Shown here: positions 1,596 to 14,145 of the stretch, one piece after another | How positions within the stretch are numbered: position 1 is the stretch's first letter | How the letters are laid out: each line of letters begins with the position of its first letter | IMG/VR virus record: IMGVR_UViG_2690316148_000011 | Direction: 5' to 3' (one strand) | Length of the DNA stretch: 14,327 bases | Source: a virus | Taxonomy: Duplodnaviria; Heunggongvirae; Uroviricota; Caudoviricetes | The notes under the pieces: model-generated | Database searches by the model: none | What the model saw: only the letters and a program-made list of their open reading frames with translations | Told to the model about the DNA's origin: nothing | Position numbers and translations under genes: made by a program

Positions 1596-2153
1596 TCAAC
1601 AATGAATTTTGAGTAATTGCTCTACAGTCATATTTTTAATTGCGCCCCGGTTAACAAGAGTCCATCCCTGTTCTTCCAGATAAAACCGGAAAGTCTCCAT
1701 GGTACAGACCCGTGCGCCATCAGGAACGGTTTCGGTGAATCTGATGTTGCCGCGTTCGTCGAAGTGAACAACCAGGGTGCGGCCATCGCCTGGAATTATT
1801 TTGTCAGTGGGTGGGGTGTTATTCTGGCGCAGTTCGGCCTCCATGCGATCGAACTCAGCAATGTAGGCTTCTTTAAATGCAGCGGCTTTTTTGCCAGTGA
1901 ATCCCATCACCAGGAAAACGAAGCCGTTTTTGGTGATTTGGTACATCGGGCGTTTTTCGCCTTTGGCGTCAGTGTAGGTGACGTCCTCAAAATTGAGGGC
2001 GTTAAATTCAGGTGAGCATTCAGTATTTGCGATGGCACGTAACACATTGTCGTGACGCTTGCCAAAGAACTCTGCGATCGCAATAGACGTAGTGACAGCG
2101 CGACCATTTTCGATGGTTACGTCAGGGTGAGAAAGGGCAGGGATAGTAGCCAT
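1596..2153 (-). CDS. Rha-family phage regulatory protein (antirepressor-like)
   Basis: N-terminal region MATIPALSHPDVTIENGRAVTTSIAIAEFFGKRHDNVLRAIANT matches the Rha N-terminal domain signature (TTS..IAE.FGK.H.NVLR). ATG at 2151-2153 preceded by GAGGA. The ORF-track start at 2450 is rejected (see noticed_but_rejected). Confidence 0.8.
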   Translation of the reverse strand: MATIPALSHPDVTIENGRAVTTSIAIAEFFGKRHDNVLRAIANTECSPEFNALNFEDVTYTDAKGEKRPMYQITKNGFVFLVMGFTGKKAAAFKEAYIAEFDRMEAELRQNNTPPTDKIIPGDGRTLVVHFDERGNIRFTETVPDGARVCTMETFRFYLEEQGWTLVNRGAIKNMTVEQLLKIHC

Positions 2154-2320
2154 GATGGCATCCTCGAGTGATAAGTTAATTAACTCACCACCGAGGTTTT
2201 CCACGACCATAAGGGTGGTGAGACGTACAGGGGTGGAAATACCGGTCATCACGGAACCCGGCCAGCCTTGCGGTTGCCCTGCACGCCCCACCATAATGCG
2301 AATGTGGCTGTGCTTAACGC

Positions 2321-2345
2321 ATAAAAAAACCGCCTGAGCGCGGTT
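2321..2345 (-). terminator. Rho-independent terminator (minus strand)
   Basis: Minus-strand AACCGC-GCUCAG-GCGGUU hairpin (6-bp stem) followed by a U7 run (plus-strand A-run 2323-2329). Confidence 0.5.
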
Positions 2346-2397
2346 ATGCGCCGTGAATGATTTCGGGTTTCCACGCCCGGCACCCGTTTTATGAGGT
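2323..2397 (-). ncRNA. Candidate ~75-nt small RNA or leader transcript upstream of the Rha antirepressor gene (c4/sar-like position); unverified
   Basis: Promoter (2405-2433) and intrinsic terminator (2321-2345) on the same strand about 75 nt apart. The hairpin stem is preserved in the paralogous copy although loop and body bases differ. A UCAC-UUCG-GUGA tetraloop hairpin lies just upstream. Confidence 0.35.
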
Positions 2398-2404
2398 GCA
2401 GGTG

Positions 2405-2433
2405 CACTATAATTCCACCCGTTCTGGTTTTCA
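2405..2433 (-). promoter_or_regulatory. Sigma70-like promoter on the minus strand (-35 TTGAAA, 17-bp spacer, -10 TATAGT)
   Basis: Plus-strand tttcaa at 2428-2433 and actata at 2405-2410, separated by 17 nt. Identical in the second copy (4125-4153). Confidence 0.4.
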
Positions 2434-2864
2434 ATAGCTACATTCAACATTTTCTCTCACCTTTCATCACCGAAGTGAATTTTGTTGATGCGGTGCCTGG
2501 TGCCTCCAGGTGACGTTAACCAGTTAACAATTACAGTTGGCTTTCCCACCCAAACCAATAAGGACTAACATGACTTTTAACTGTGCCGCGTGCGCATAGC
2601 CGCATTCACCGCATCACAAAATTCACTTTAAAAAGGGCGGACATCAGCCAGCAATTAAACCGATGCCGCCAACTGGTACTTCACACAGCAATGTCGTTAT
2701 TTACAACCGGAAGCGCACTCCCACCATTTAAATTTCACAGACAAGACCGACTCTTTATGGATACCGGAAATGCGCCTTCGTGTTGTGCCCGGTTTTATTT
2801 CACCACCTCCGGGCTTTGGTATGAGGTGTACTGGCAATAGCGGACACTACCATTTGTTCTTTTT

Positions 2865-3683
2865 TTAAGCAGCCATCTGATGATATTTTTCCCTGAAGGC
2901 TGCCGGGGAGATATTCCCCAGACGAGAGTGACAACGCTGACGATTGTAGAAAATCTCAATGTATTCCCGTATTACTGAGATGGCTTCATCCCGGTTATTA
3001 AAACGATAGTGGCTCAGGCTCTCATTTTTCAGCGTTCCCCAGAAGCTTTCCATCGGAGCGTTGTCGTAACAGTTACCTTTACGCGACATTGATGTTTTCA
3101 GACCAGACTGCTCCTGTATGACCCGGTAATCGTATGCGCAGTACTGTGAACCTCGATCAGAGTGGTGGATTAGCCCGGCAGGTGGGCGCTGGCTCCTGAG
3201 CGCCATAAACAGGGCTTTACCTGTCAGCTCTTTTGTCATGCGCTCTCCCATGGCGTAGCCGACAATTTCGCACGTATAAACATCTTTGATGCCAGCGAGG
3301 TACAACCATCCCTCCTGTGTGGCAACATACGTCAGGTCCGCCACCCAGACCTGATTTGGTGCTGTAGGAGCGAACGTCTGGTTCAGCAGATTTGGCGCAA
3401 CTGGCAGATTGTGGTTCGAGTTCGTAGTCGCTCTGAACTTGCGTTTCTGCTTACAGCGTAGCCTTAGCTCCTTACGAAGACGTGCCAGTCGGTCACGACC
3501 AACGATGATGCCATTCTCTGCCAGCTCCGTCTGGAGCCGCCGGGTTCCATATGTTTCGCGAGTGCGGATATGTGCCACCTTAATCTCCAGTTTTAGCCGC
3601 TCATCACTTTGTTTTCTGTCTGAGGGTTCATGCTGTACCCAGTTGTAATAACCGCTCCTGGATACACCAAATACCTGACACAT
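2865..3683 (-). CDS. IS3-family transposase OrfB (DDE/integrase core), probably expressed as an OrfAB fusion by -1 frameshifting
   Basis: Motifs typical of the IS3 transposase catalytic domain (LIHHSDRGSQYCAYDY, SRKGNCYDNAPMESFW). I translated the orfB frame upstream of the first ATG by hand: it stays open to the A7G slippery run (about 3764-3772) inside orfA and is the -1 frame relative to orfA. Confidence 0.85.
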   Translation of the reverse strand: MCQVFGVSRSGYYNWVQHEPSDRKQSDERLKLEIKVAHIRTRETYGTRRLQTELAENGIIVGRDRLARLRKELRLRCKQKRKFRATTNSNHNLPVAPNLLNQTFAPTAPNQVWVADLTYVATQEGWLYLAGIKDVYTCEIVGYAMGERMTKELTGKALFMALRSQRPPAGLIHHSDRGSQYCAYDYRVIQEQSGLKTSMSRKGNCYDNAPMESFWGTLKNESLSHYRFNNRDEAISVIREYIEIFYNRQRCHSRLGNISPAAFREKYHQMAA

Positions 3684-3718
3684 CGCTTCAATGGGAAATT
3701 GTTGTCGCCATTGTTCGA

Positions 3719-3959
3719 TTAACGCGTATTTTTCAGCGACTCCTGTGCAAAATACGCTGTTGCTTTTTTTAATATATCTCGCTCAAGGCGAGCTTCATTT
3801 AACGCCTTACGCAGTTGCAGAATTTCAGATTCCAGTTCAGCCACCGTGCGGGAACCAGGAGTACCGAGCCCTTTTCTGGCGGCGGTAACCCATTGTCCTA
3901 AAGTGCCTTCAGGAAGAGATAATCGGGAAGCGCCTTCACTGATCGAAAGTTGATTTTCA
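3719..3959 (-). pseudogene. IS3-family OrfA, N-terminally truncated (HTH plus leucine-zipper region retained)
   Basis: Sequence ...LSISEGASRLSLPEGTLGQWV...ELESEILQLRKALNEARLERDILKKATAYF matches the C-terminal two-thirds of IS3-family OrfA. No start codon; the ORF runs into the n at 3960. Confidence 0.7.
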
Positions 3960-3960
3960 N

Positions 3961-4403
3961 ACCGGTCATCACGGAACCCGGCCAGCCTTGCGGTTGCCCT
4001 GCACATCCCACCATAATTTGAATGGAGCTGTGCATTACGCATAAAAAAACCGCTTCAGCGCGGCTATGCGCTCGAGTAACGTTCGGGTTTCCACGCCCGG
4101 CACCCGTTTTATAAGGTGCAGGTGCACTATAATTCCACCCGTTCTGGTTTTCAATAGCTACATTCAACATTTTCTCTCACCTTTCATCACCGAAGTGAAT
4201 TTTGTTGATGCGGTGCCTGGTGCCTCCAGGTGACGTTAACCAGTTAACAATTAACGCCGGATACAGGGAAACCCATAACCACCCGATACGGGGGAACTAA
4301 TCGCTTTTTAACTGTGCCGCGTGCGCTGAGCCGCATTCACCGCATCACAAAATTCACTTTAAAAAGGGCGGACATCAGCCAGCAATGAAACTGATGCCGC
4401 CAA
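3961..4403. repeat. Copy 2 of the ~430-bp duplicated module
   Basis: Aligns with 2241-2672 at a constant offset of 1720 for the first ~280 bp, then a divergent patch, then a second conserved block. Confidence 0.9.
4043..4117 (-). ncRNA. Second copy of the candidate small RNA; no downstream antirepressor gene because the truncated IS abuts it
   Basis: Same promoter hexamers (4125-4153) and a hairpin AGCCGC-GCUGAA-GCGGUU plus U-run at 4043-4065. Relative to copy 1 the changes fall in the loop and convert an A-U pair to G-U. Confidence 0.3.
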
Positions 4404-5576: not shown

Positions 5577-5867
5577 TTAACTGTTTTTGCCTGGATACTG
5601 TCTTCGAGAATGCACAATATTTACTACTTCTATGCTTGATGCTGTTACTCGGTAAAGGATGATGTAGTTAGGATGAGTTACAATTTCACGAAGACCAAGA
5701 ACTCGCTCGCTTGGAGGATACAGGTAAGGATGCTCTGTGAGCGGCAAAACGGATGTTTCAATTCGAATTTTCATTCTGCGTGCTGCCGCGGGATTTTCTT
5801 TAGCTATGTAGGCTACGATCTGGCGCAAATCATCACGAGCAGATGGTAGCCATAAAACGGGTAACAT
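5577..5867 (-). CDS. ParE/RelE-family type II toxin (ParE2-like)
   Basis: 96-aa protein with ParE/RelE-like N-terminus (MLPVLWLPSARDDLRQIVAYI) and C-terminus (IILYRVTASSIEVVNIVHSRRQYP); start overlaps the antitoxin stop (TAATG). Confidence 0.85.
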   Translation of the reverse strand: MLPVLWLPSARDDLRQIVAYIAKENPAAARRMKIRIETSVLPLTEHPYLYPPSERVLGLREIVTHPNYIILYRVTASSIEVVNIVHSRRQYPGKNS

Positions 5868-6061
5868 TATTCACCTCTGTGAGTTGCAGCAGCAATTTGG
5901 GCAATAATTTGTTCCATTTCCGCCATTACCTCATCATGCGGAATCGCCGGGCGGGGATCCGCGAGGCTTGCTGCTACTTTGGCCCGCAGCCATTCGTTGT
6001 AACTATTTTCTTGCTCAACTGTCTCAAATTCTGAAACCATTGGGGAAAGGACTGTACTCAT
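5867..6061 (-). CDS. Small antitoxin, PaaA2-like
   Basis: 64-aa acidic protein immediately upstream of, and translationally coupled to, the ParE-like gene; AGGAG RBS 9 nt upstream. N-terminal SPMVSEFETVEQENSYNEWLRAKVAASLADPRPAIPHDEV resembles the PaaA2 antitoxin of E. coli O157 as I recall it. Confidence 0.75.
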   Translation of the reverse strand: MSTVLSPMVSEFETVEQENSYNEWLRAKVAASLADPRPAIPHDEVMAEMEQIIAQIAAATHRGE

Positions 6062-6080
6062 TTTACATATCTCCTCTGAT

Positions 6081-6581
6081 TTAGGCGCGACGGCCTTTTT
6101 GTGCAGCTAACCACCGCGCAACCGTACGATCCATTGATTCTTTTTTATCTTTCATCTCCTGAAGCATGTGTTCTTGATCTTCTTTCGGAAAAGCTCTGAA
6201 CGTATGGATTAAATCTCGTTCCATCGGCTCTACGGCAAACGGTAGTTCATCCTCTGTTTGTTCTGTGTCTGCTGGTAATGCGACTATGTTATCTTGCTGT
6301 GGTTCTCGACAATACATCCTTGCAATTTGCAGCAAATCTACCATGTCTGGCCTGATTGACTCAGGGGGAACTTTCAGTAAGCCAGCAAACTTTAGAACAG
6401 CCTCAAGGTTTAGTGGGGTTTGACCATTTAGGTAGTGACTTACCGCCCCTTGTGTTGAAAACCCCATAATTTCCGCCGCACGTTCCTGAGTCAATCCCAA
6501 CTGAGATTTCTTTGCCATCCAGATTTCTTTCAGTCTTCTGGCGGCGTTGAGGTCGGTGTCTGACAATGATTTTCTTTTCAT
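6081..6581 (-). CDS. HTH (XRE/cI-like) transcriptional repressor, PaaR2/RacR-like; probable prophage immunity repressor
   Basis: HTH motif LTQERAAEIMGFSTQGAVSHYLNG; no peptidase S24 domain; first gene of the repressor-antitoxin-toxin operon; divergent from a Cro-like gene across an operator-bearing intergenic region. The ORF-track start at 6611 is GTG without an SD, so ATG 6579-6581 was chosen. Confidence 0.75.
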   Translation of the reverse strand: MKRKSLSDTDLNAARRLKEIWMAKKSQLGLTQERAAEIMGFSTQGAVSHYLNGQTPLNLEAVLKFAGLLKVPPESIRPDMVDLLQIARMYCREPQQDNIVALPADTEQTEDELPFAVEPMERDLIHTFRAFPKEDQEHMLQEMKDKKESMDRTVARWLAAQKGRRA

Positions 6582-6615
6582 ACATCCAATTCTAATAAGA
6601 TTGCTAATCACTTTG

Positions 6616-6657
6616 AAATAGCATCACTATTTACTTTTAAAAATAACAGTGCTATTA
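6616..6657. promoter_or_regulatory. OR-like region: two operator-like palindromes (6616-6632; inverted degenerate copy 6641-6657) between the divergent repressor and Cro-like genes
   Basis: AAATAGCATCACTATTT (perfect 6-bp arms) and, on the other strand, AATAGCACTGTTATTTT; centres 25 bp apart, the same spacing as the OL-like pair. Promoter hexamers are only weakly recognisable (for example TTTACT ... ATTAAT). Confidence 0.5.
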
Positions 6658-6692
6658 ATTATGCATTGGTAACACATCACATAGGGCGGATT

Positions 6693-6956
6693 ATGAATCT
6701 TGGAGAATATTTGCATCATTTTCATATAACCCAGAGTTCATTTGCTGAGATTGTTGGCGCATCCCAAGGGATGGTCAGCCACGTTATAACGGGGCGTGCA
6801 AAACTTACAGGAGAAAAAATATTACGTTGGTGTGAAGCAACGGGATGGGTGGTGACCCCACATGAGATTGACAGTAAAACCTACCCCAACCCAACTGACG
6901 GCTTGCCTGCTGAGTTTCAGGCTAACACACAACCATCGGCGGGGGTTGATTCATGA
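6693..6956 (+). CDS. Cro-like HTH regulator (YdaS family)
   Basis: 87-aa protein with HTH (SQGMVSHVITGRAKLTGEKILRW); ATG at 6693 with AGGG RBS; divergent from the repressor; overlaps the next gene (ATGA). Confidence 0.7.
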   Translation: MNLGEYLHHFHITQSSFAEIVGASQGMVSHVITGRAKLTGEKILRWCEATGWVVTPHEIDSKTYPNPTDGLPAEFQANTQPSAGVDS

Positions 6957-7378
6957 AAATCAAGCATGAACACATCCGCATGGCGATGAAAGCCTGGGCG
7001 CATCCGGACGGTGAAAAAGTTCCGGCAGCTGAAATAACCAGGGTTTATTTCGAACTGGGAATGACGTTTCCGGTTCTGCATAACGACAGCAAGCACAACA
7101 CGCTTTATCTCAACACCCAAAAGATTTTCCGTTGGCTGGATAAAGACACCCCTGACGCTGTTGAAAAAATTCAGGCGTTGTTACCTGCGATCGAAAGGGC
7201 AATGCCACCTCCGCTGGTGGCTCGAATGCGCAGCCACAGTTCAGCTTATTTTCGGGAACTGGTGGAGACGCATGAACGACTGGTGAGAGACGCTGATGAT
7301 TTTGTCGCAGTGGCAATCGCCGGTTTCAATCAGATGAACCGTGGTGGCCCGGCAGGAAATGCTGTGGCAGTACATTGA
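6953..7378 (+). CDS. YdaT-like protein (Rac-type early-region protein, reported as toxic in Rac)
   Basis: 141 aa, N-terminus MKIKHEHI...; position directly downstream of the Cro/YdaS-like gene matches the Rac racR-ydaS-ydaT arrangement. Family assignment is from memory of that locus. Confidence 0.55.
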   Translation: MKIKHEHIRMAMKAWAHPDGEKVPAAEITRVYFELGMTFPVLHNDSKHNTLYLNTQKIFRWLDKDTPDAVEKIQALLPAIERAMPPPLVARMRSHSSAYFRELVETHERLVRDADDFVAVAIAGFNQMNRGGPAGNAVAVH

Positions 7379-7449
7379 CTGACAATAGCCATATCGAATC
7401 GCTCCCGGCAACTCGTGAGTAAAAAGATTCGGTATCAGAAGAGGTGAGT

Positions 7450-8514
7450 ATGGCTAACGCCTGGCTCAGATTATGGCATGACATGCCAAATGACCCTAAG
7501 TGGCGAACAATTGCCAGGGTGTCAGGGCAGCCAATTGCAACAGTGATGGCAGTGTATATCCACCTCCTGGTGAGCGCGTCACGAAATGTCACGCGAGGTC
7601 ACATTGATGTCACGACAGAAGATTTGGCAAGTGCGCTCGACGTGACAGAAGAGGTAATTGATTCAATTTTGCAGACGATGCAGGGGCGGGTACTTGATGG
7701 TGATTTAATCACTGGATGGGAAAAACGCCAGGTGCTTAAAGAGGACAACGGCAATATTTCGCAAACCGCAAAATCTCCTGCAGAGCGCAAGAGGGCGCAG
7801 CGAGAGAGGGAAAGAAAGCGGGAACAAAATGGCGATTGTCACGGCGCGTCACGAAATGTCACGCACATGTCACGACGAGTCACGACAGATACAGATAAAG
7901 ATACAGATAAAGAAGATCAAAACACTATGGTCCATGGCGTAAAAAACGCCACGAACCAGGCAGGGGATGTTCAGACCGTCAATCCTGGTCAGCCAGCAGG
8001 CTCGACACCGGAAGCCGATTCAGCGTATGCGCTGAAAGCCGATTCGGGCGCTGTGCAGCAGGTGATGACCGCAAGGCCGGAGCAATCACTCCAACTGCAG
8101 CAGCCTGAAGCCGATTCCGCCATTCAGCGGGAAGCCGATCGGGTAGCCCCGGAAAACACCGGGCAGCCTGTGGGACGAGTGGATTATCCGGATGTGTTCG
8201 AACAGGTCTGGCGGGAATACCCGTTGCGTGCCGGGGCAAACCCGAAGAAATCCGCATTCAGTGCCTGGAAGGCCAGATTGCGCGAGGGGGTGCCACCAGA
8301 GACCATGCTGGATGGTGTGAGGCGTTACGCGAGATACCTGGCGGCGACCGGGAAAGCGGGAACGGAATTTGTTCAGCGAGCGACGACGTTTTTTGGGCCG
8401 GACCGGAATTTTGAAAACCCCTGGTTGCTCCCGGTAAGCGGCACGAACAACCAGCGTTGTGTGAATCATATTTCTGAACCGGATACCGAAATTCCGCCGG
8501 GATTCAGGGGGTGA
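7450..8514 (+). CDS. Phage replication initiation protein (lambda O-like / YdaU-like replisome organiser)
   Basis: ATG at 7450 with AGAGGTGAG RBS; contains two iteron clusters within its coding sequence (as ori-lambda lies within O); C-terminal region YPDVFEQVWREYPLRAGANPKKSAFSAWKARL resembles phage replication-protein C-terminal domains; followed immediately by the DnaC-like gene. Confidence 0.6.
   Translation: MANAWLRLWHDMPNDPKWRTIARVSGQPIATVMAVYIHLLVSASRNVTRGHIDVTTEDLASALDVTEEVIDSILQTMQGRVLDGDLITGWEKRQVLKEDNGNISQTAKSPAERKRAQRERERKREQNGDCHGASRNVTHMSRRVTTDTDKDTDKEDQNTMVHGVKNATNQAGDVQTVNPGQPAGSTPEADSAYALKADSGAVQQVMTARPEQSLQLQQPEADSAIQREADRVAPENTGQPVGRVDYPDVFEQVWREYPLRAGANPKKSAFSAWKARLREGVPPETMLDGVRRYARYLAATGKAGTEFVQRATTFFGPDRNFENPWLLPVSGTNNQRCVNHISEPDTEIPPGFRG
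7578..7614. repeat. Iteron cluster A: four GTCAC(G/A) repeats phased at 10-11 bp
   Basis: GTCACG at 7578, 7588, 7609 and GTCACA at 7598. Confidence 0.6.
7838..7912. repeat. Iteron cluster B: five GTCACG repeats phased at 10-11 bp, followed by a tandem ATACAGATAAAG x2; candidate replication origin
   Basis: GTCACG at 7838, 7848, 7858, 7869, 7879. The 19-mer gcgtcacgaaatgtcacgc is shared exactly with cluster A. Tandem 12-mer at 7889-7912. Confidence 0.6.
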
Positions 8515-8520
8515 TGTGGC

Positions 8521-9267
8521 ATGAAAAACATTGCGGCAGCCGGGGTTCTTGAACGTATTCACAGACTTGCACCACAGGGGGCGGTTCCACCGTACCGGAC
8601 GGTGGAGGAGTGGCGGGAATGGCAACTTGCTGAAGGACGAAAACGCAGCGAGGAGATTAACCGCCAGAATCGCCAGTTGCGGGTGGAAAAAATCCTGAAT
8701 CGTTCGGGCATCCAGCCTCTGCACAGCAAATGCTCGTTTGCGAATTATCAGGTGCAGAACGACGGGCAAAAATACGCGCTGAGCCAGGCCAAATCCATAG
8801 CTGACGAACTGATGACCGGGTGCACGAATTTTGTGTTCAGCGGTAAAACCGGCACCGGGAAAAATCACCTTGCAGCGGCGATGGGTAACTGGCTGATGGC
8901 GAAGGGGCGCAGCGTGATTATCGTCACCGTGTCTGATGTCATGAGCGTGTTGCATGACAGCTACGACAACGGCAAATCCGGTGAAAAATTTTTACAGGAG
9001 CTTTGCGGGGTTGATTTGCTGGTCCTGGATGAAATAGGCATTCAGCGGGAGACGAAAAACGAGCAGGTGGTATTGCACCAGATAATTGATCGCCGGACAG
9101 CATCACTGTGCAGTGTCGGGATGTTAACAAACCTGAATCATGCCGCAATGAGCACGCTTCTTGGTGAGAGGATTATGGACCGCATGACCATGAACGGTTG
9201 TCGGTGGGTGACGTTTAACTGGGATAGCTGGCGTTCAAATGTCAGCTTTCCGGGAGTTGTGAAGTAA
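8521..9267 (+). CDS. DnaC-like replicative helicase loader (IstB-like AAA+ ATPase; YdaV-like)
   Basis: Walker A GKTGTGKNHLAAAM and Walker B LLVLDEIG; 248 aa; positioned directly after the O-like gene. Confidence 0.85.
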   Translation: MKNIAAAGVLERIHRLAPQGAVPPYRTVEEWREWQLAEGRKRSEEINRQNRQLRVEKILNRSGIQPLHSKCSFANYQVQNDGQKYALSQAKSIADELMTGCTNFVFSGKTGTGKNHLAAAMGNWLMAKGRSVIIVTVSDVMSVLHDSYDNGKSGEKFLQELCGVDLLVLDEIGIQRETKNEQVVLHQIIDRRTASLCSVGMLTNLNHAAMSTLLGERIMDRMTMNGCRWVTFNWDSWRSNVSFPGVVK

Positions 9268-9288
9268 TTTTTGTTGGAGGATGTTTTA

Positions 9289-10014
9289 ATGGAAACTGTA
9301 TTTGACGCACTGAAAGCACTGAAAAGAGCCTCTTCACATGTGGTGGCGTCCCGCCTTGGAATCAGCCGTGAAGATGCGGTCAACGAACTGTGGAAACTGA
9401 AGCGCCGTGGTGAAGCGGATAACAAGGGTTCGATGTGGTGGCTGATTCAGGCTGGTGAAAGTGAACCAGTGTCACCGGTACCGAAAGTGACAGCGCAAAT
9501 GCTGACTGAGGCGATTGAACAACATGGCCCACAAACGGCGGATGAGCTGGCACTGATGTTCGGGATTACCTCCCGCCGGGCGAATTCATCGCTGGCCATG
9601 GCAATCAGCAAAGGGCGTCTGATTCGCGTGAATCAGGGCGGTAAATTTCGGTACTGCATACCGGGCGCTGATTTACCGGCAGAGCCGAAAGCCGCATCCA
9701 TAGCGGAAACGGATGGTAAAGTCTTTCCTCAGCCAGCAGGTGTTGCGTTACCGGTACAGGAAGCTGCAACACAGGAAGAAATTAAAACAGAAACTGTGGC
9801 GGACATTGTGCAGTCGTTGCCATCGTTCACCGAAACGCAAGCGGATGACCTGGTTTTACCATCGCTGCATATGGCAAACCGCGAACTGCGTCGGGCGAAA
9901 AGTCATGTCCAGAAGTGGGAGCGTGTCTGCGCCGCGTTGCGGGAGCTGAACAAGCACCGGGATATTGTTCGACAGATTGTCGATTCCTCCGGTCGTATTG
10001 TGTCGGAAAAGTGA
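9289..10014 (+). CDS. Hypothetical phage protein (241 aa), possibly with two winged-helix-like segments
   Basis: ATG at 9289 preceded by GGAGGA with 7 nt spacing (the ORF-track start at 9271 is TTG); protein-like composition. No confident family. Confidence 0.55.
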
Positions 10015-11233: not shown

Positions 11234-13066
11234 ATGGCCCGCATGTTTGATACATTAGGATTTTACATTATGAATGTGCAACATTTTGATTTTTTTACAG
11301 ATAATGAGTTTTCTAATCTGGAAAGATATCAAACTTGTAAAGCCATGGCCAAAGGTTATGCGGGCAATTACAAAACCGGGCAGTCAAGGTTGATGCATGC
11401 CCGCTCATACTGCTTCAGCATCGTAGCTGCATATTGGGATACCCTTGCAAAAAAGCAAAAAAGCAGCATTAAAATGAGGGCAGTACCGCACACTGTTTAC
11501 ATAGAAGACATTCCATGTGATGCACGCGAGCTCGCTGAACGAACAGGTGAGCTTATTGCTCAATTTCCGGCGGAGGACGCTGGATATCTGATTGGGTCAA
11601 TTTATACGGTAATGCTGCCATCCGCTTACCGTTCGGAATTGGGGGCTTACTATACCCCCCCACCTTTGGTAGCGCGTCTCTTGGACCTGGCTGAAAAGTC
11701 TGGTGTTGATTTTTCTCATGCATCGGTTATTGATCCTGCGTGTGGTGGCGGTGCATTTTTGGCACCAGTAGCCATTCGAATGTTAAAAAAAGACAAGGGG
11801 TCTTCCCCTGAATGGATGTTGAGGAGAATCAGTCGTCGTTTAAAGGGGATAGAAATCGATCCATTTGCGGCTTGGATGAGTTTGGTATTGCTCGAATCTG
11901 TACTAATGCCACTATGTGTAAAGGTAAAACGTAGATTGCCTGAAGATACAATTATTGTTGCTGATGCGCTTCAGCAAGATAAATTTTCTGGTTATGATCT
12001 TGTGGTAGGGAATCCGCCTTACGGACGTGTCACTCTCGATATTAAAACGAGAGAAAAATATTCTCGTTCGTTATTTGGTCATGCAAATCTATATGGATTG
12101 TTCACCGACTTAGCTGTTCGCATGGTTAAAGAGAAAACAGGAGTTATTGCATTTCTTACGCCAACTTCTTTTCTTGGTGGGCAGTATTTCACCGCGCTGC
12201 GAACCCTTTTGACCGAAAAAACTACTCCGTATGCCCTTGATTTCGTCACTGACAGGGATGGGGTCTTTGACGATGTTCTCCAGGAAACAATGTTGACAGC
12301 ATTCAAGGCGGGAGAACATAAAGTTCGGGCCCAGGTATCCTCACTTGTCCCTAAGGGGTTGAACAAAGCAAAAATTGAGAAAATAGGTAATGTTGATATA
12401 GAAAAAGGTGGAGCAACGTGGCTTTTGCCACGCGTTAAAGATGATGCCTGTTTTCTTAATGTATTAAAACAGATGTCTACGCGTTTAGCTGATCTGGGAT
12501 ACTCAGTCTCTACAGGTCAGTTAGTCTGGAATCGATTTAAGTCGCAGTTGCGTACGACGAAAGGAAAAAATAGCTACCCATTAGTCTGGGCGGAATCAAT
12601 AACTTCAGCTGGTTTTCGTTTTAGTGCAGACAGAAAAAATCATGTTCCCTATATCGATATAACCCCACAACAGGGTTTCCTTGTGACAAAATCTGAATGT
12701 GTGCTTGTTCAGCGGACAACATCGAAGGAACAGGACAGAAGGATTTTAGCGGCAATTTTACCTCAGGGATTTATAGATGAAACTGGTGGCGTAGTAGTTG
12801 AAAACCATATTAATATTGTATATTCAAACGGATTGTTCTCTGCGGTTCGCCCTGATGTTATTGATATGCTACTTAATTCGCATGTTGTCGATCGGGCGTT
12901 CAGGTGTATAAGCGGAAGTGTTGCTGTTTCGGCCTATGAATTGAATTCAATCCCGTTGCCTTCTCTGGAGCAGGTGATGGAGATTCAATCGTTAATTGAT
13001 GCTGGCGTCCACAGACGGATTATTGAGAGAACTATCGCTGGTTTCTATGGAGTGATGATTGCATGA
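11234..13066 (+). CDS. N6-adenine DNA methyltransferase, gamma-class (motif I before motif IV), Type II R-M modification subunit
   Basis: Motif X/I YYTPPPLVARLLDLA ... VIDPACGGGAFL followed by motif IV VVGNPPYGRV; long C-terminal region consistent with a target-recognition domain. AT-rich compared with the prophage core. Start uncertain: ATG 11234 (weak SD) or ATG 11269 (AGGA upstream). Confidence 0.85.
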   Translation: MARMFDTLGFYIMNVQHFDFFTDNEFSNLERYQTCKAMAKGYAGNYKTGQSRLMHARSYCFSIVAAYWDTLAKKQKSSIKMRAVPHTVYIEDIPCDARELAERTGELIAQFPAEDAGYLIGSIYTVMLPSAYRSELGAYYTPPPLVARLLDLAEKSGVDFSHASVIDPACGGGAFLAPVAIRMLKKDKGSSPEWMLRRISRRLKGIEIDPFAAWMSLVLLESVLMPLCVKVKRRLPEDTIIVADALQQDKFSGYDLVVGNPPYGRVTLDIKTREKYSRSLFGHANLYGLFTDLAVRMVKEKTGVIAFLTPTSFLGGQYFTALRTLLTEKTTPYALDFVTDRDGVFDDVLQETMLTAFKAGEHKVRAQVSSLVPKGLNKAKIEKIGNVDIEKGGATWLLPRVKDDACFLNVLKQMSTRLADLGYSVSTGQLVWNRFKSQLRTTKGKNSYPLVWAESITSAGFRFSADRKNHVPYIDITPQQGFLVTKSECVLVQRTTSKEQDRRILAAILPQGFIDETGGVVVENHINIVYSNGLFSAVRPDVIDMLLNSHVVDRAFRCISGSVAVSAYELNSIPLPSLEQVMEIQSLIDAGVHRRIIERTIAGFYGVMIA

Positions 13067-14145
13067 ATCTGCCTGTTGTTCCCCCATTGAATGTTATCCG
13101 GGAAAGATTACAATTAATTTTCCCTGAAGGGACTGAGAATCGTGGATATTTAATTCGGGAAATAGCTGCAAAAACAATTTTTGTCATGTTTTATGCTGGT
13201 GCGGTTGAGGGGCTGGGGCGATGGATAAGGCCCAGCCAGGTTGTAAGTATGGGAGATTCGCAGGCTGCTCTTACTGATGATGCGTCCAGAGAAAGCTGGG
13301 TAAAGATGACTTTCTCTAAACAAAAGATAAGGCCTGCTGATGCATGGTATGCGGAAAATACGCGTGAGCCAATACGTGATGAAACTATAAAAAATGGCCT
13401 AATACCTTGCAATGCAATTGTTGAGCGTAAAGGTATACCCACCACATCCTCTCGTCCTCGTTACAGTTTGAATCGCTCTTTTGCAGCACTCTTTGATGCC
13501 GGGCTTGAAGGAGATTCGCTGCTGAGTGCAATAAGTTCCTGGCAAGAAAATCATTTGAACAAAGCCGCTCTTGCTAGGTTGCGTTTATTGAAATCAGGGG
13601 CAGTGATTGCTGCTGATGCCGTAGTCGTCACTTTCCCAAATGGAGAGAAGAGAACTTTAGCTCCGGGCCCGTCAAGTACAATAGCTAAGGCCGTCATCGA
13701 AGTTTTTGCTCCTAATTTTCTTAAGAATCCAACTGTGCTCTGGTTGTCTGAATCCGGGAATAAAGTTGTTGCTCAGGATGATGTATTGGCAAAAGCATTG
13801 GGGCTGAATATTGATGCCTCAAAAGCACTTCCAGATATTATTTTGATTGATTTGGGAGAGGACCGAACGGGTTCGGACATGCTTGTAGTTTTCACTGAAG
13901 TAGTTGCGACAGATGGGCCTATAAACAGGGAACGAAAAGTTACTCTCACTCATTTGGCTATTGACGCTGGGTTCAGCGAGAAAAATCTTGCATTCCTTAC
14001 GGCATTTATGGACAGAAGTGCTCTGCCTTTTAAAAAGGCAATACCAGAATTGGCGTGGGGATCTTATGCATGGTTTGCTTCTGAACCGGAGCACTTAATT
14101 GATCTTCGGGATGGTTATCCGGTAAAGATCAGCCAGAGAAAATGA
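13063..14145 (+). CDS. Putative restriction endonuclease partner of the methyltransferase (possibly BsuBI/PstI-like; unverified)
   Basis: 360-aa ORF whose ATG overlaps the methyltransferase stop (ATGA) with GGAG upstream; same AT-rich composition; size and position typical of a Type II endonuclease. No catalytic motif could be assigned confidently by eye. Confidence 0.5.
   Translation: MNLPVVPPLNVIRERLQLIFPEGTENRGYLIREIAAKTIFVMFYAGAVEGLGRWIRPSQVVSMGDSQAALTDDASRESWVKMTFSKQKIRPADAWYAENTREPIRDETIKNGLIPCNAIVERKGIPTTSSRPRYSLNRSFAALFDAGLEGDSLLSAISSWQENHLNKAALARLRLLKSGAVIAADAVVVTFPNGEKRTLAPGPSSTIAKAVIEVFAPNFLKNPTVLWLSESGNKVVAQDDVLAKALGLNIDASKALPDIILIDLGEDRTGSDMLVVFTEVVATDGPINRERKVTLTHLAIDAGFSEKNLAFLTAFMDRSALPFKKAIPELAWGSYAWFASEPEHLIDLRDGYPVKISQRK

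Follow-up and report, generated by a model that had tools for sequence, protein, structure and literature searches.

A stretch of 14,327 nucleotides of viral DNA (Caudoviricetes; IMG/VR record IMGVR_UViG_2690316148_000011), called the window below, was found to be E. coli/Shigella prophage sequence. It contains a gene for a predicted replication initiator, which had matches in 2,554 of 5,426 complete E. coli genomes and whose 354-aa (amino acid) product matched PHROG 3729, "replication initiation protein" (E=3e-250). The coding sequence of this gene carries two arrays of short direct repeats, clusters A and B, and a purine- and AT-rich tract adjoining cluster B, and the genes surrounding it form a lambdoid immunity and replication module. 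In the original prediction, made from the letters of the window, the arrays were regarded as phased iterons lying within an O-like initiator gene and marking a candidate replication origin, as the iterons of ori-lambda do. The present analysis concerns these arrays, the gene containing them and their counterparts in homologous loci.

Sequence reading and a pattern search confirmed the four GTCAC(G/A) repeats of cluster A (7578-7614) and the five of cluster B (7838-7884), with the predicted phasing of 10-11 bp. All nine copies were found on the plus strand. The GTCACG cores recur with every helical turn and thus lie on one face of the DNA. Nine of the 11 exact GTCACG sites present on both strands of the window fall within 7578-7884, compared with an expectation of 0.11 per 307 bp in shuffled sequences; with the expectation taken from these shuffles, the probability of at least nine sites in 307 bp was 6e-15. 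Across the 14.3 kb, clusters A and B were the sole chains of a 5-mer phased at 10-11 bp, and a chain of at least four phased copies was observed in 0 of 300 shuffles. The word predicted to be shared by both clusters as a 19-mer was confirmed, except for its length: it is a 21-mer (GCGCGTCACGAAATGTCACGC, at 7574 and 7844), and a second common word of 11 bp (GTCACGACAGA) was detected at 7609 and 7879. Comparison of homologous loci showed an iteron core of 6 bp with unconserved spacers of 4-5 bp and no dyad symmetry. Besides the direct copies, a single inverted GTCACG is located downstream of cluster A (Table 1). Of 20 GTCAC-type loci, 16 carried the corresponding GTGAC, at gene offset 192 or, in two of them, 193; the codon evidence for this inverted copy is moderate and its role is uncertain.

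For the comparison, 58 homologous loci were taken from one-genome-per-species contigs. Codon usage was compared among 19 loci of the GTCAC type, which showed a median pairwise nucleotide identity of 69% and came from hosts with a GC content of 34-63%. The hexamers start at codon positions 3, 1, 2, and 1 in cluster A and at positions 2, 3, 1, 3, and 1 in cluster B, and are translated in three ways, as S-R, V-T, and G-H or C-H. The residues they encode are the invariant ones in the protein alignment, which includes Pseudomonas, Bordetella, Azotobacter, Klebsiella, and others. Within cluster A, the codons were essentially fixed (GCG-TCA, GTC-ACG, GGT-CAC, and GTC-ACG). At conserved residues the codon entropy was 0.15 bit within the hexamers vs. 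1.55 bit outside them (Mann-Whitney p=7e-6), and the synonymous sites beside the hexamers were saturated. The same difference was found in a replicate of 11 loci with the alternative core CGAACGC (0.09 vs. 1.18 bit, p=2.4e-4). Moreover, the rare codons TCA, GGT, and TGT were retained in hosts with 60-63% GC, and indels were found as units of 21 bp, corresponding to seven codons and two repeats. Since the hexamer is present in all three codon phases and its synonymous sites are frozen, the constraint is on the DNA and not on the protein. This comparison indicates that the repeats are under direct purifying selection at the DNA level. The repeated peptides noted earlier, SRNVTRGHIDVTT and SRNVTHMSRRVTT, are indeed present in the 354-aa product, and they are a by-product of the DNA because one hexamer is read in three frames.

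The two positions of the arrays were found to be conserved within the family. In closer homologs, GTCAC was present at gene offsets 128, 138, 148, and 159 and again at approximately 378-430. Distant homologs, including sequences from Alphaproteobacteria, Acidobacteria and one Gemmataceae genome (Planctomycete), did not contain GTCAC, but phased CGAACGC or GTAACG in both places instead. By a motif-agnostic detector, 34 of 55 loci were found to have one phased 5-mer with at least three copies in each of the two zones, compared with 0 of 1,528 controls consisting of random 700-bp segments from the locus flanks. A phased cluster B was present in 47 of the 55 loci with 3-7 copies; the number of copies in cluster A varied from 3 to 6 over the family. 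Repeat number, which had been put forward earlier as a point for comparison with homologous genes, was four in cluster A at identical offsets in 16 of 20 GTCAC-type homologs (host GC 34-63%), and these offsets were exactly kept from Entomomonas to Stenotrophomonas; the remaining homologs had three, five or six copies. Among 79 near-identical E. coli viral contigs, cluster A had four copies in 76 and cluster B five copies in all 79. The viral-contig scan yielded only such near-identical relatives, and this result thus informs on copy number and not on diversity.

Each of the cores GTCACG, GTAACG, and CGAACGC is used by both clusters together and switches by subfamily, and this concerted switch implies one common binder of the two arrays. 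A single iteron type spans Gamma- and Betaproteobacteria, and types differ among elements of related hosts. Because two clusters are the norm of the family, a recent duplication is excluded, and the comparison indicates that the two-cluster layout is ancestral and not the product of a local duplication. Of the proposed "duplicated or bipartite" origin, the bipartite part is therefore retained and the duplicated part is not; likewise, the presence of two clusters, described in the original prediction as unusual, was found not to be so.

Iteron types were assigned by k-mer chains, by which L019, L021, L023-L025, L027, L039-L041, L043, and L055 remained mixed or unclassified. Other types of repeats were observed in distant relatives of the N-domain, namely two clusters of a palindromic unit resembling CTACGTAG (L040 and L055; offsets approximately 325-370 and 650-690) and TGCAA at a spacing of 21 bp (L041, L043, L048, and L053; offsets 190, 211, and 232). 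These sequences indicate that further iteron specificities and layouts exist within the family.

Where cluster B was defined (45 loci), its last iteron was in every case directly followed by a tract of the form (C)AGATA(A/C)AGATA.... This tract had a mean GC content of 0.29 compared with 0.56 for the whole locus, its coding strand was 79% purine, and it constituted the gene-wide GC minimum in 41 of the 45 loci. It was present whatever the type of iteron and in different reading frames (DKDKD vs. QIREE), which indicates that the tract, too, is an element maintained at the DNA level. In the window it includes the tandem duplication that had been described after cluster B (Table 1). The 12-bp unit GATAAAGATACA, which codes for DKDT, varies in number in the manner of a microsatellite: 5, 6, 8, 10, or 12 consecutive GATA(A/C)A hexamers were counted in the 79 E. 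coli viral contigs, and tract length changed in steps of 12 bp. Gene lengths were 1041-1107 bp, and the numbers of iterons were fixed. The window carries the short allele of five hexamers, and the commonest allele has six (63 of 79). A hairpin at 7928-7958 was considered as an origin element by analogy with the lambda palindrome, but it was rejected, as its 13 pairs depend on G-T pairing and 7-8 pairs are left as DNA, and hairpins following the tract in the 45 loci were no better than those of controls (6.9 vs. 6.5 pairs). The inverted repeat itself, TGGTCCATGGCGT-AAAAA-ACGCCACGAACCA, was flagged as resembling a terminator on the minus strand, and outside this C-domain module it is not conserved.

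Cluster B and the tract together encode aa 130-158, and cluster B alone encodes aa 130-145 at the start of a predicted disordered linker. A mosaic breakpoint was located at approximately 7907-7919, since partial matches to E. coli sequences stop at approximately 7907 or start at approximately 7919, and the alignment of homologs diverges directly after DKDTDKE. Downstream of this point, C-domains were found to be freely swapped among relatives. The C-terminal tail ...PD..IPPGFRG recurs in homologs with otherwise unrelated C-domains; it showed 13 of 19 identical residues compared with YdaU of the Rac prophage (E=7e-6), also resembles the C-terminus of DnaT, and would serve for the docking of a partner. 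An identification of the whole protein as DnaT was rejected, as only the last 24 residues matched NF002770 (positions 156-179; 18 bits against a cut-off of 201, E=0.0016). The DNA-binding domain of DnaT (PF17948) was not found in the 354-aa product, although it was present in P0013, a relative with a different C-domain.

AlphaFold 2 models, which rest on alignments of 20-40 sequences, predicted with confidence an N-domain of aa 1-93, in which helices are followed by a beta-hairpin, a basic helix at aa 110-131 and disorder at aa 135-224. The predicted winged-helix fold of the N-domain was closest to the N-terminal domain (NTD) of DnaD and to a RepA_N initiator; a search of the sequence profile against PDB chains gave nothing at E<=1. 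Cluster A encodes aa 43-55, i.e., the end of helix 3 and a loop. Over the 58 loci, the N-domain was the sole product of the window to co-occur with the arrays; of the others, the cI-like product was found in two loci, the cro-like in three, the YdaT-like in five, this C-domain in one and this DnaC-like gene in two.

Residues of the basic helix were found to vary with the type of iteron. Residue 117 was Q in 21 of 23 GTCACG-type loci and W, Y, or F in 23 of 24 AACG-type loci; residue 114 was K in the GTCACG type and A, S, G, or V in the AACG type, and a 9-residue insertion also tracked the iteron type. This covariation suggests that the basic helix helps to read the iteron core. The phylogeny of the N-domain was rejected as a predictor of iteron type, as the first 100 residues without the iteron-encoded ones did not separate the types (identities 0.71, 0.63, and 0.64). 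A natural chimera was observed in L035, a Noviherbaspirillum metagenome-assembled genome, in which (offsets 0-400) the first approximately 100 residues are CGAACGC-like, the basic helix (ERKRQQR) and cluster B are of the GTCAC type, and cluster A is absent. This locus is a useful natural experiment for placing the specificity determinant.

It is conceivable, though doubtful, that the peptide encoded by cluster A (aa 44-55) itself contributes to the iteron-reading surface. This segment reads SRNVTRGH.D.VT in the GTCACG type and SNATERGRTQ in the CGAACGC type, many of its residues are Arg, Asn, His, Thr, or Gln, and four of the residues that best discriminated between the iteron types (51, 47, 45, and 55) lie inside it, the others being 117 and 114; the helix that would canonically serve for recognition is acidic. 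If this were true, a change in the repeats would alter the site and its reader at once, and through such self-referential coupling origin specificity and incompatibility could be switched rapidly.

The coordinates of the features are given in Table 1. At E<=0.01, no Pfam family was found for the 354-aa product or for nine diverse homologs, and an Rfam scan gave no match inside the gene. In public records, relatives are labeled "phage replisome organizer," "replication protein O," "primosomal protein I" or "hypothetical." The family comprised 2,270 clusters at 50% identity (E<=1e-3) in a library of 1.84 billion proteins. In other hosts, the next gene was found to encode a DnaB-family helicase (L014, L030, and L046), and elsewhere a weakly G39P-like protein (L004) or other small proteins.

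Table 1. Features of the initiator gene, its repeat arrays and the neighboring genes (positions in the window).
Feature	Position	Strand	Remarks
HTH (helix-turn-helix) repressor gene (cI-like)	6081-6611	-	Divergent
cro-like gene	6666-6956		
YdaT/CII-like gene	6953-7378		
Initiator/replisome-organizer gene	7450-8514	+	354 aa; open reading frame, translation, PHROG 3729
Winged-helix N-domain, coding (aa 1-93)	7450-7728	+	
Iteron cluster A	7578-7614	+	GTCACG at 7578, 7588, 7609; GTCACA at 7598; spacings 10/10/11 bp
Inverted single GTCACG	7641-7646	-	27 bp downstream of cluster A
Basic helix, coding (aa 108-131, KSPAERKRAQRERERKREQ...)	7771-7842	+	Candidate iteron-specificity element; just upstream of cluster B; AlphaFold helix 110-131
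Iteron cluster B	7838-7884	+	GTCACG at 7838, 7848, 7858, 7869, 7879; spacings 10/10/11/10 bp
Disordered linker, coding (aa 135-224)	7852-8121	+	AlphaFold pLDDT (predicted local distance difference test) <50
Purine/AT-rich tract ACAGATACAGATAAAGATACAGATAAAGAAGATCAAAACAC, candidate DNA-unwinding element	7885-7925	+	GC 32.5%, minimum of the gene
12-bp tandem AGATACAGATAA x2	7887-7910	+	Inside the AT-rich tract
C-terminal tail RCVNHISEPDTEIPPGFRG, candidate partner-docking motif	8455-8511	+	
DnaC-like helicase-loader gene	8521-9267	+	Directly downstream; PRK12377 E=1e-150; DnaC equivalog E=2e-89; Pfam IstB_IS21

The organization of the gene was compared with that of known systems. As in the O genes of lambda and Stx phages, direct repeats, here putative binding sites of the initiator, are located mid-gene, in the part coding for an interdomain linker, and are directly followed by a purine/AT-rich tract, with offsets of 348-432 in lambda and 388-434 for cluster B. 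The N-domain and the iterons would likewise form a specificity module, the C-domain would contact the loader, and the gene lies in a rightward early operon after cro and cII analogs and before a helicase-loader gene. The number of iterons varies in these phages as well (four vs. six in lambda and Stx phages; PMC7466680). However, the protein showed no sequence similarity to lambda O (BLASTP E=0.15) and no match to Pfam Phage_rep_O. The iterons of lambda are 18-19 bp long with internal dyad symmetry and a period of approximately 20-24 bp, in contrast to the non-palindromic 6-bp core repeated every 10-11 bp here; a second cluster is present here approximately 230 bp upstream, in the sequence coding for the folded, putatively DNA-binding domain, and the partner is DnaC-like and not lambda P. 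Thus, the designation of the gene as "O-like" holds by analogy but not by homology, the predicted N-domain being similar to DnaD-NTD and RepA_N.

In the pSK41-type RepA_N initiators, a DnaD-like winged helix-turn-helix NTD is combined with central Rep boxes in rep, a linker encoded by the origin and a host-specific C-terminal domain (CTD; PMC5703833). The RepA_N initiators (Rep of pSK41 and pTZ2162 in Firmicutes, RepA of the Vibrio PLE) resemble the present gene in having central iterons within rep (four Rep boxes), with a linker between the NTD and a variable CTD encoded at this place, in the exchange of the NTD and the origin segment as a module, and in a DnaD-NTD-like winged-helix N-domain, which is predicted for the present protein. 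They differ in that neither the present protein nor the nine diverse homologs matched Pfam PF06970, and in having a single cluster in plasmids and satellites of Gram-positives, not in temperate phages of proteobacteria. Besides, the CTD of pSK41 Rep binds the DnaG primase, whereas here a gene for a DnaC-like loader or a DnaB helicase follows. Among lambda O, SPP1 G38P and RepA_N, it is the pSK41-type RepA_N that the present gene most closely resembles in design.

In SPP1, whose replisome organizer is G38P, oriL is "embedded in gene 38," with AB boxes bound by the organizer, an adjoining AT-rich DNA-unwinding element and helicase-loader and helicase genes next to it (PMC5737612, PMC6316719). 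Similarly, repeats and a candidate unwinding element are found here in the organizer's own gene, followed by a loader or helicase gene, and "phage replisome organizer" is a label that public records give to relatives of the protein. In contrast to G38P, no match to Pfam Phage_rep_org_N was found; matches to "replisome organizer" PHROGs were weak (phrog_4880, E=2.4e-5; phrog_5968, E=4.2e-4), and the strong ones were to "replication initiation protein." In SPP1 the second copy of the origin (oriR) is distant, not a second cluster in the same gene, and the host is Gram-positive. By sequence, the protein does not belong to the lambda O or RepA_N family and probably not to the SPP1 family, and the second cluster in the sequence coding for a folded domain is without counterpart in lambda, SPP1, and pSK41 as their sources describe them.

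The Rac prophage of E. coli K-12 showed the same gene order (repressor, ydaS/cro-like gene, ydaT, an initiator-like gene, ydaU, and the DnaC-like ydaV). The ydaU gene contains its own internal repeats, GATGTTCAAAC, followed by the shared AAAGATACAGATAAAGA tract, and encodes the shared ...PD..IPPGFRG tail. Its repeats (A/GGATGTTCAAACA, at least three copies) were located in L059 (E. coli K-12 Rac) at 3505-3563 and the tract at 3600-3620. The N-domain of YdaU (DUF1376) is unrelated, however, and its repeat sequence differs; YdaU was therefore rejected as a homolog, as the likeness does not extend beyond the C-terminal tail and the AT tract. The presence of both in ydaU and in the gene of the window suggests a shared module. 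According to earlier reports (PMC3945230; reference 62 in PMC11014345), Rac contains an origin that is active, oriJ. This origin may lie inside ydaU, which is to be taken as a lead and not as a demonstration.

Based on these results, the region from approximately 7578 to 7925 is interpreted as a bipartite iteron-type replication origin embedded in its own initiator gene, to which we assign a probability of about 0.8. The general anatomy of an iteron origin is present, with direct repeats selected as DNA, an adjoining AT-rich tract and an initiator encoded in cis. The earlier proposal of phased iterons as a candidate ori-lambda-like origin is supported by the frozen synonymous sites and the two conserved positions, and it is also backed by the AT-rich tract abutting cluster B and the helicase/loader module. 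As judged from sequence comparison, the feature is real and functionally constrained, and it is very probably an origin. We infer a mechanism in which the N-domain of the initiator and the adjacent basic helix would bind the GTCACG cores, five sites in cluster B and four plus the inverted one in cluster A. The bound initiator would oligomerize, possibly looping the approximately 230 bp between the clusters, and the oligomer would destabilize the adjoining (AGATAA)n tract (7885-7925) as the unwinding element. The variable C-domain and the tail would then recruit the DnaC-like loader, and thereby host DnaB, so that replication would start here.

Several observations weigh against this interpretation. 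Some homologs lack cluster A or carry it in a degenerate form, and nine of 55 loci, e.g., L032 and L035, have cluster B only; cluster A may thus be auxiliary and not essential. The distance from A to B varied between 241 and 339 bp among loci without strict helical phasing, which weakens a rigid looping model. With regard to the binder, the helix predicted for "recognition" has an acidic sequence (EEVIDSILQTM, aa 67-77), and the NTD of DnaD, which is the closest match in fold, does not itself bind DNA (PMC7145576). The covariation of the basic helix with the iteron type is confounded by linkage, as the helix is encoded 15-60 bp from cluster B, and by shared ancestry, and L023 is an exception. 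Finally, the N-domain family was found in only 24 deposited phage genomes, none of them from a classical or studied model phage; a literal search for the repeat sequence in open-access papers gave no match, and no experimental study of binding or initiation in the family was found in the open-access literature.

Some of these observations would fit a view in which only cluster B and the AT-rich tract constitute the origin proper, equivalent to ori-lambda, and cluster A is a separate regulatory array with the same binder. Through handcuffing or titration, like the inc iterons of plasmids, cluster A could then govern copy number or timing, or it could act as an intragenic autoregulatory roadblock for the initiator and loader genes. 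Cluster B with its tract is the more universal element (47 of 55 loci, nine with B only), the chimeric L035 has B without A, the distance between the clusters is not helically phased, and lambda replication in vitro needs only the iterons nearest to the AT-rich region (PMC7466680). On the other hand, the synonymous constraint in cluster A is as strong as anywhere in the gene, and its exact offsets are kept from Entomomonas to Stenotrophomonas. We consider such a division of roles possible but clearly less probable than a bipartite origin, of which it is a refinement and not a true alternative.

The tract and the repeats might also be explained mainly as recombination "linkers" for the exchange of N- and C-modules among lambdoid replication genes. 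The mosaic breakpoints lie directly after the tract (approximately 7907 and 7919, after DKDTDKE), the 17-mer AAAGATACAGATAAAGA is also present in Rac ydaU together with an unrelated N-domain, and tract length is hypervariable. However, this explanation, which we regard as unlikely, leaves unexplained why the repeats are helically phased, why synonymous sites within the hexamers are frozen and why the core switches in both clusters together. Exchange at this site is expected anyway if specificity resides in the iterons and the N-domain as one unit, as it does in lambdoid O genes, and it is compatible with an origin as a side effect.

Binding of another factor to the arrays, such as the CII-like YdaT, a Cro- or CI-like protein or a host protein, for transcription control (e.g., of an antisense promoter), partition or packaging, appears more improbable still. 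Lambda CII binds direct repeats 10 bp apart within coding sequence, and a weak promoter-like match on the minus strand (7862-7835) overlaps cluster B. However, genes for YdaT-, Cro-, and CI-like proteins accompany the arrays in just five, three and two of 58 loci. A promoter and terminator scan of 6000-9400 gave counts equal to the chance expectation (three promoter-like matches found vs. 3.1 expected), and there were no DnaA boxes within 7 kb of the arrays. The invariant partner of the arrays is the N-domain, and their invariant context is a helicase or loader gene. Furthermore, the variation of iteron types in related hosts and the span of one type over Gamma- and Betaproteobacteria argue against a host factor.

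Least credible is a requirement of the protein for the repeated peptides (SRNVT...VT) with the DNA periodicity as a side effect: the protein alignment shows no variation at S44, V47, T48, R49, G50, V54, T55, H131, S134, V144, and T145, but this explanation is effectively refuted by the synonymous-site tests, as the hexamer gives the unrelated dipeptides SR, VT, and GH/CH in three frames and its synonymous positions are frozen beside saturated neighbors, and it is further contradicted by the location of cluster B in a disordered linker (pLDDT <50) and by the wholly different peptide of the other subfamily (SNATERGRTQ), in which the DNA periodicity is equal.

Besides the replication module, other features were observed in the window. 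A C4 antisense RNA and two isrK-like small RNA copies were found above the Rfam gathering thresholds at 2211-2298, 2323-2399, and 4043-4119, all on the minus strand, and an Ash/Rha regulator gene (1596-2450, minus strand) adjoins these C4/isrK-like RNAs. An IS3-family transposase pair (HTH_Tnp_1 and rve; 2865-4042, minus strand) is located between the isrK copies, as if inserted into the region or duplicating it. A gene for a ParE-family toxin (5577-5867, minus strand) lies beside a small upstream open reading frame for a candidate antitoxin (5867-6061) and the HTH repressor gene. The layout of 5577-6611 on the minus strand resembles the paaR2-paaA2-parE2 module, which has reportedly been described for a cryptic prophage of O157:H7, and by this analogy the "cI-like" repressor may double as a toxin-antitoxin regulator. 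The replication module is followed downstream by a type II restriction-modification pair (11234-14145, plus strand), which constitutes defense cargo in the early region of the prophage; the pair consists of an Eco57I/N6_Mtase-type methyltransferase of 610 aa and a BsuBI/PstI-family endonuclease of 360 aa, whose stop and start codons overlap.

Origins inside initiator genes are textbook knowledge for lambda, SPP1, and RepA_N plasmids; here, such an arrangement is proposed for a large and widespread family without a Pfam entry, a member of which is present in about half of the complete E. coli genomes. The results provide a putative origin map for these prophages, including those of pathogenic E. 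coli and Shigella, with an iteron core, two arrays, a candidate unwinding tract and candidate residues 114 and 117. The cores GTCACG, GTAACG, and CGAACGC constitute a natural specificity series for the co-evolution of initiator and origin. In addition, the gene represents an unusually clean overlapping code, in which codons of a folded domain are dictated by a DNA array for putative binding, and this bears on gene annotation, on codon-based tests of selection and on synthetic recoding.

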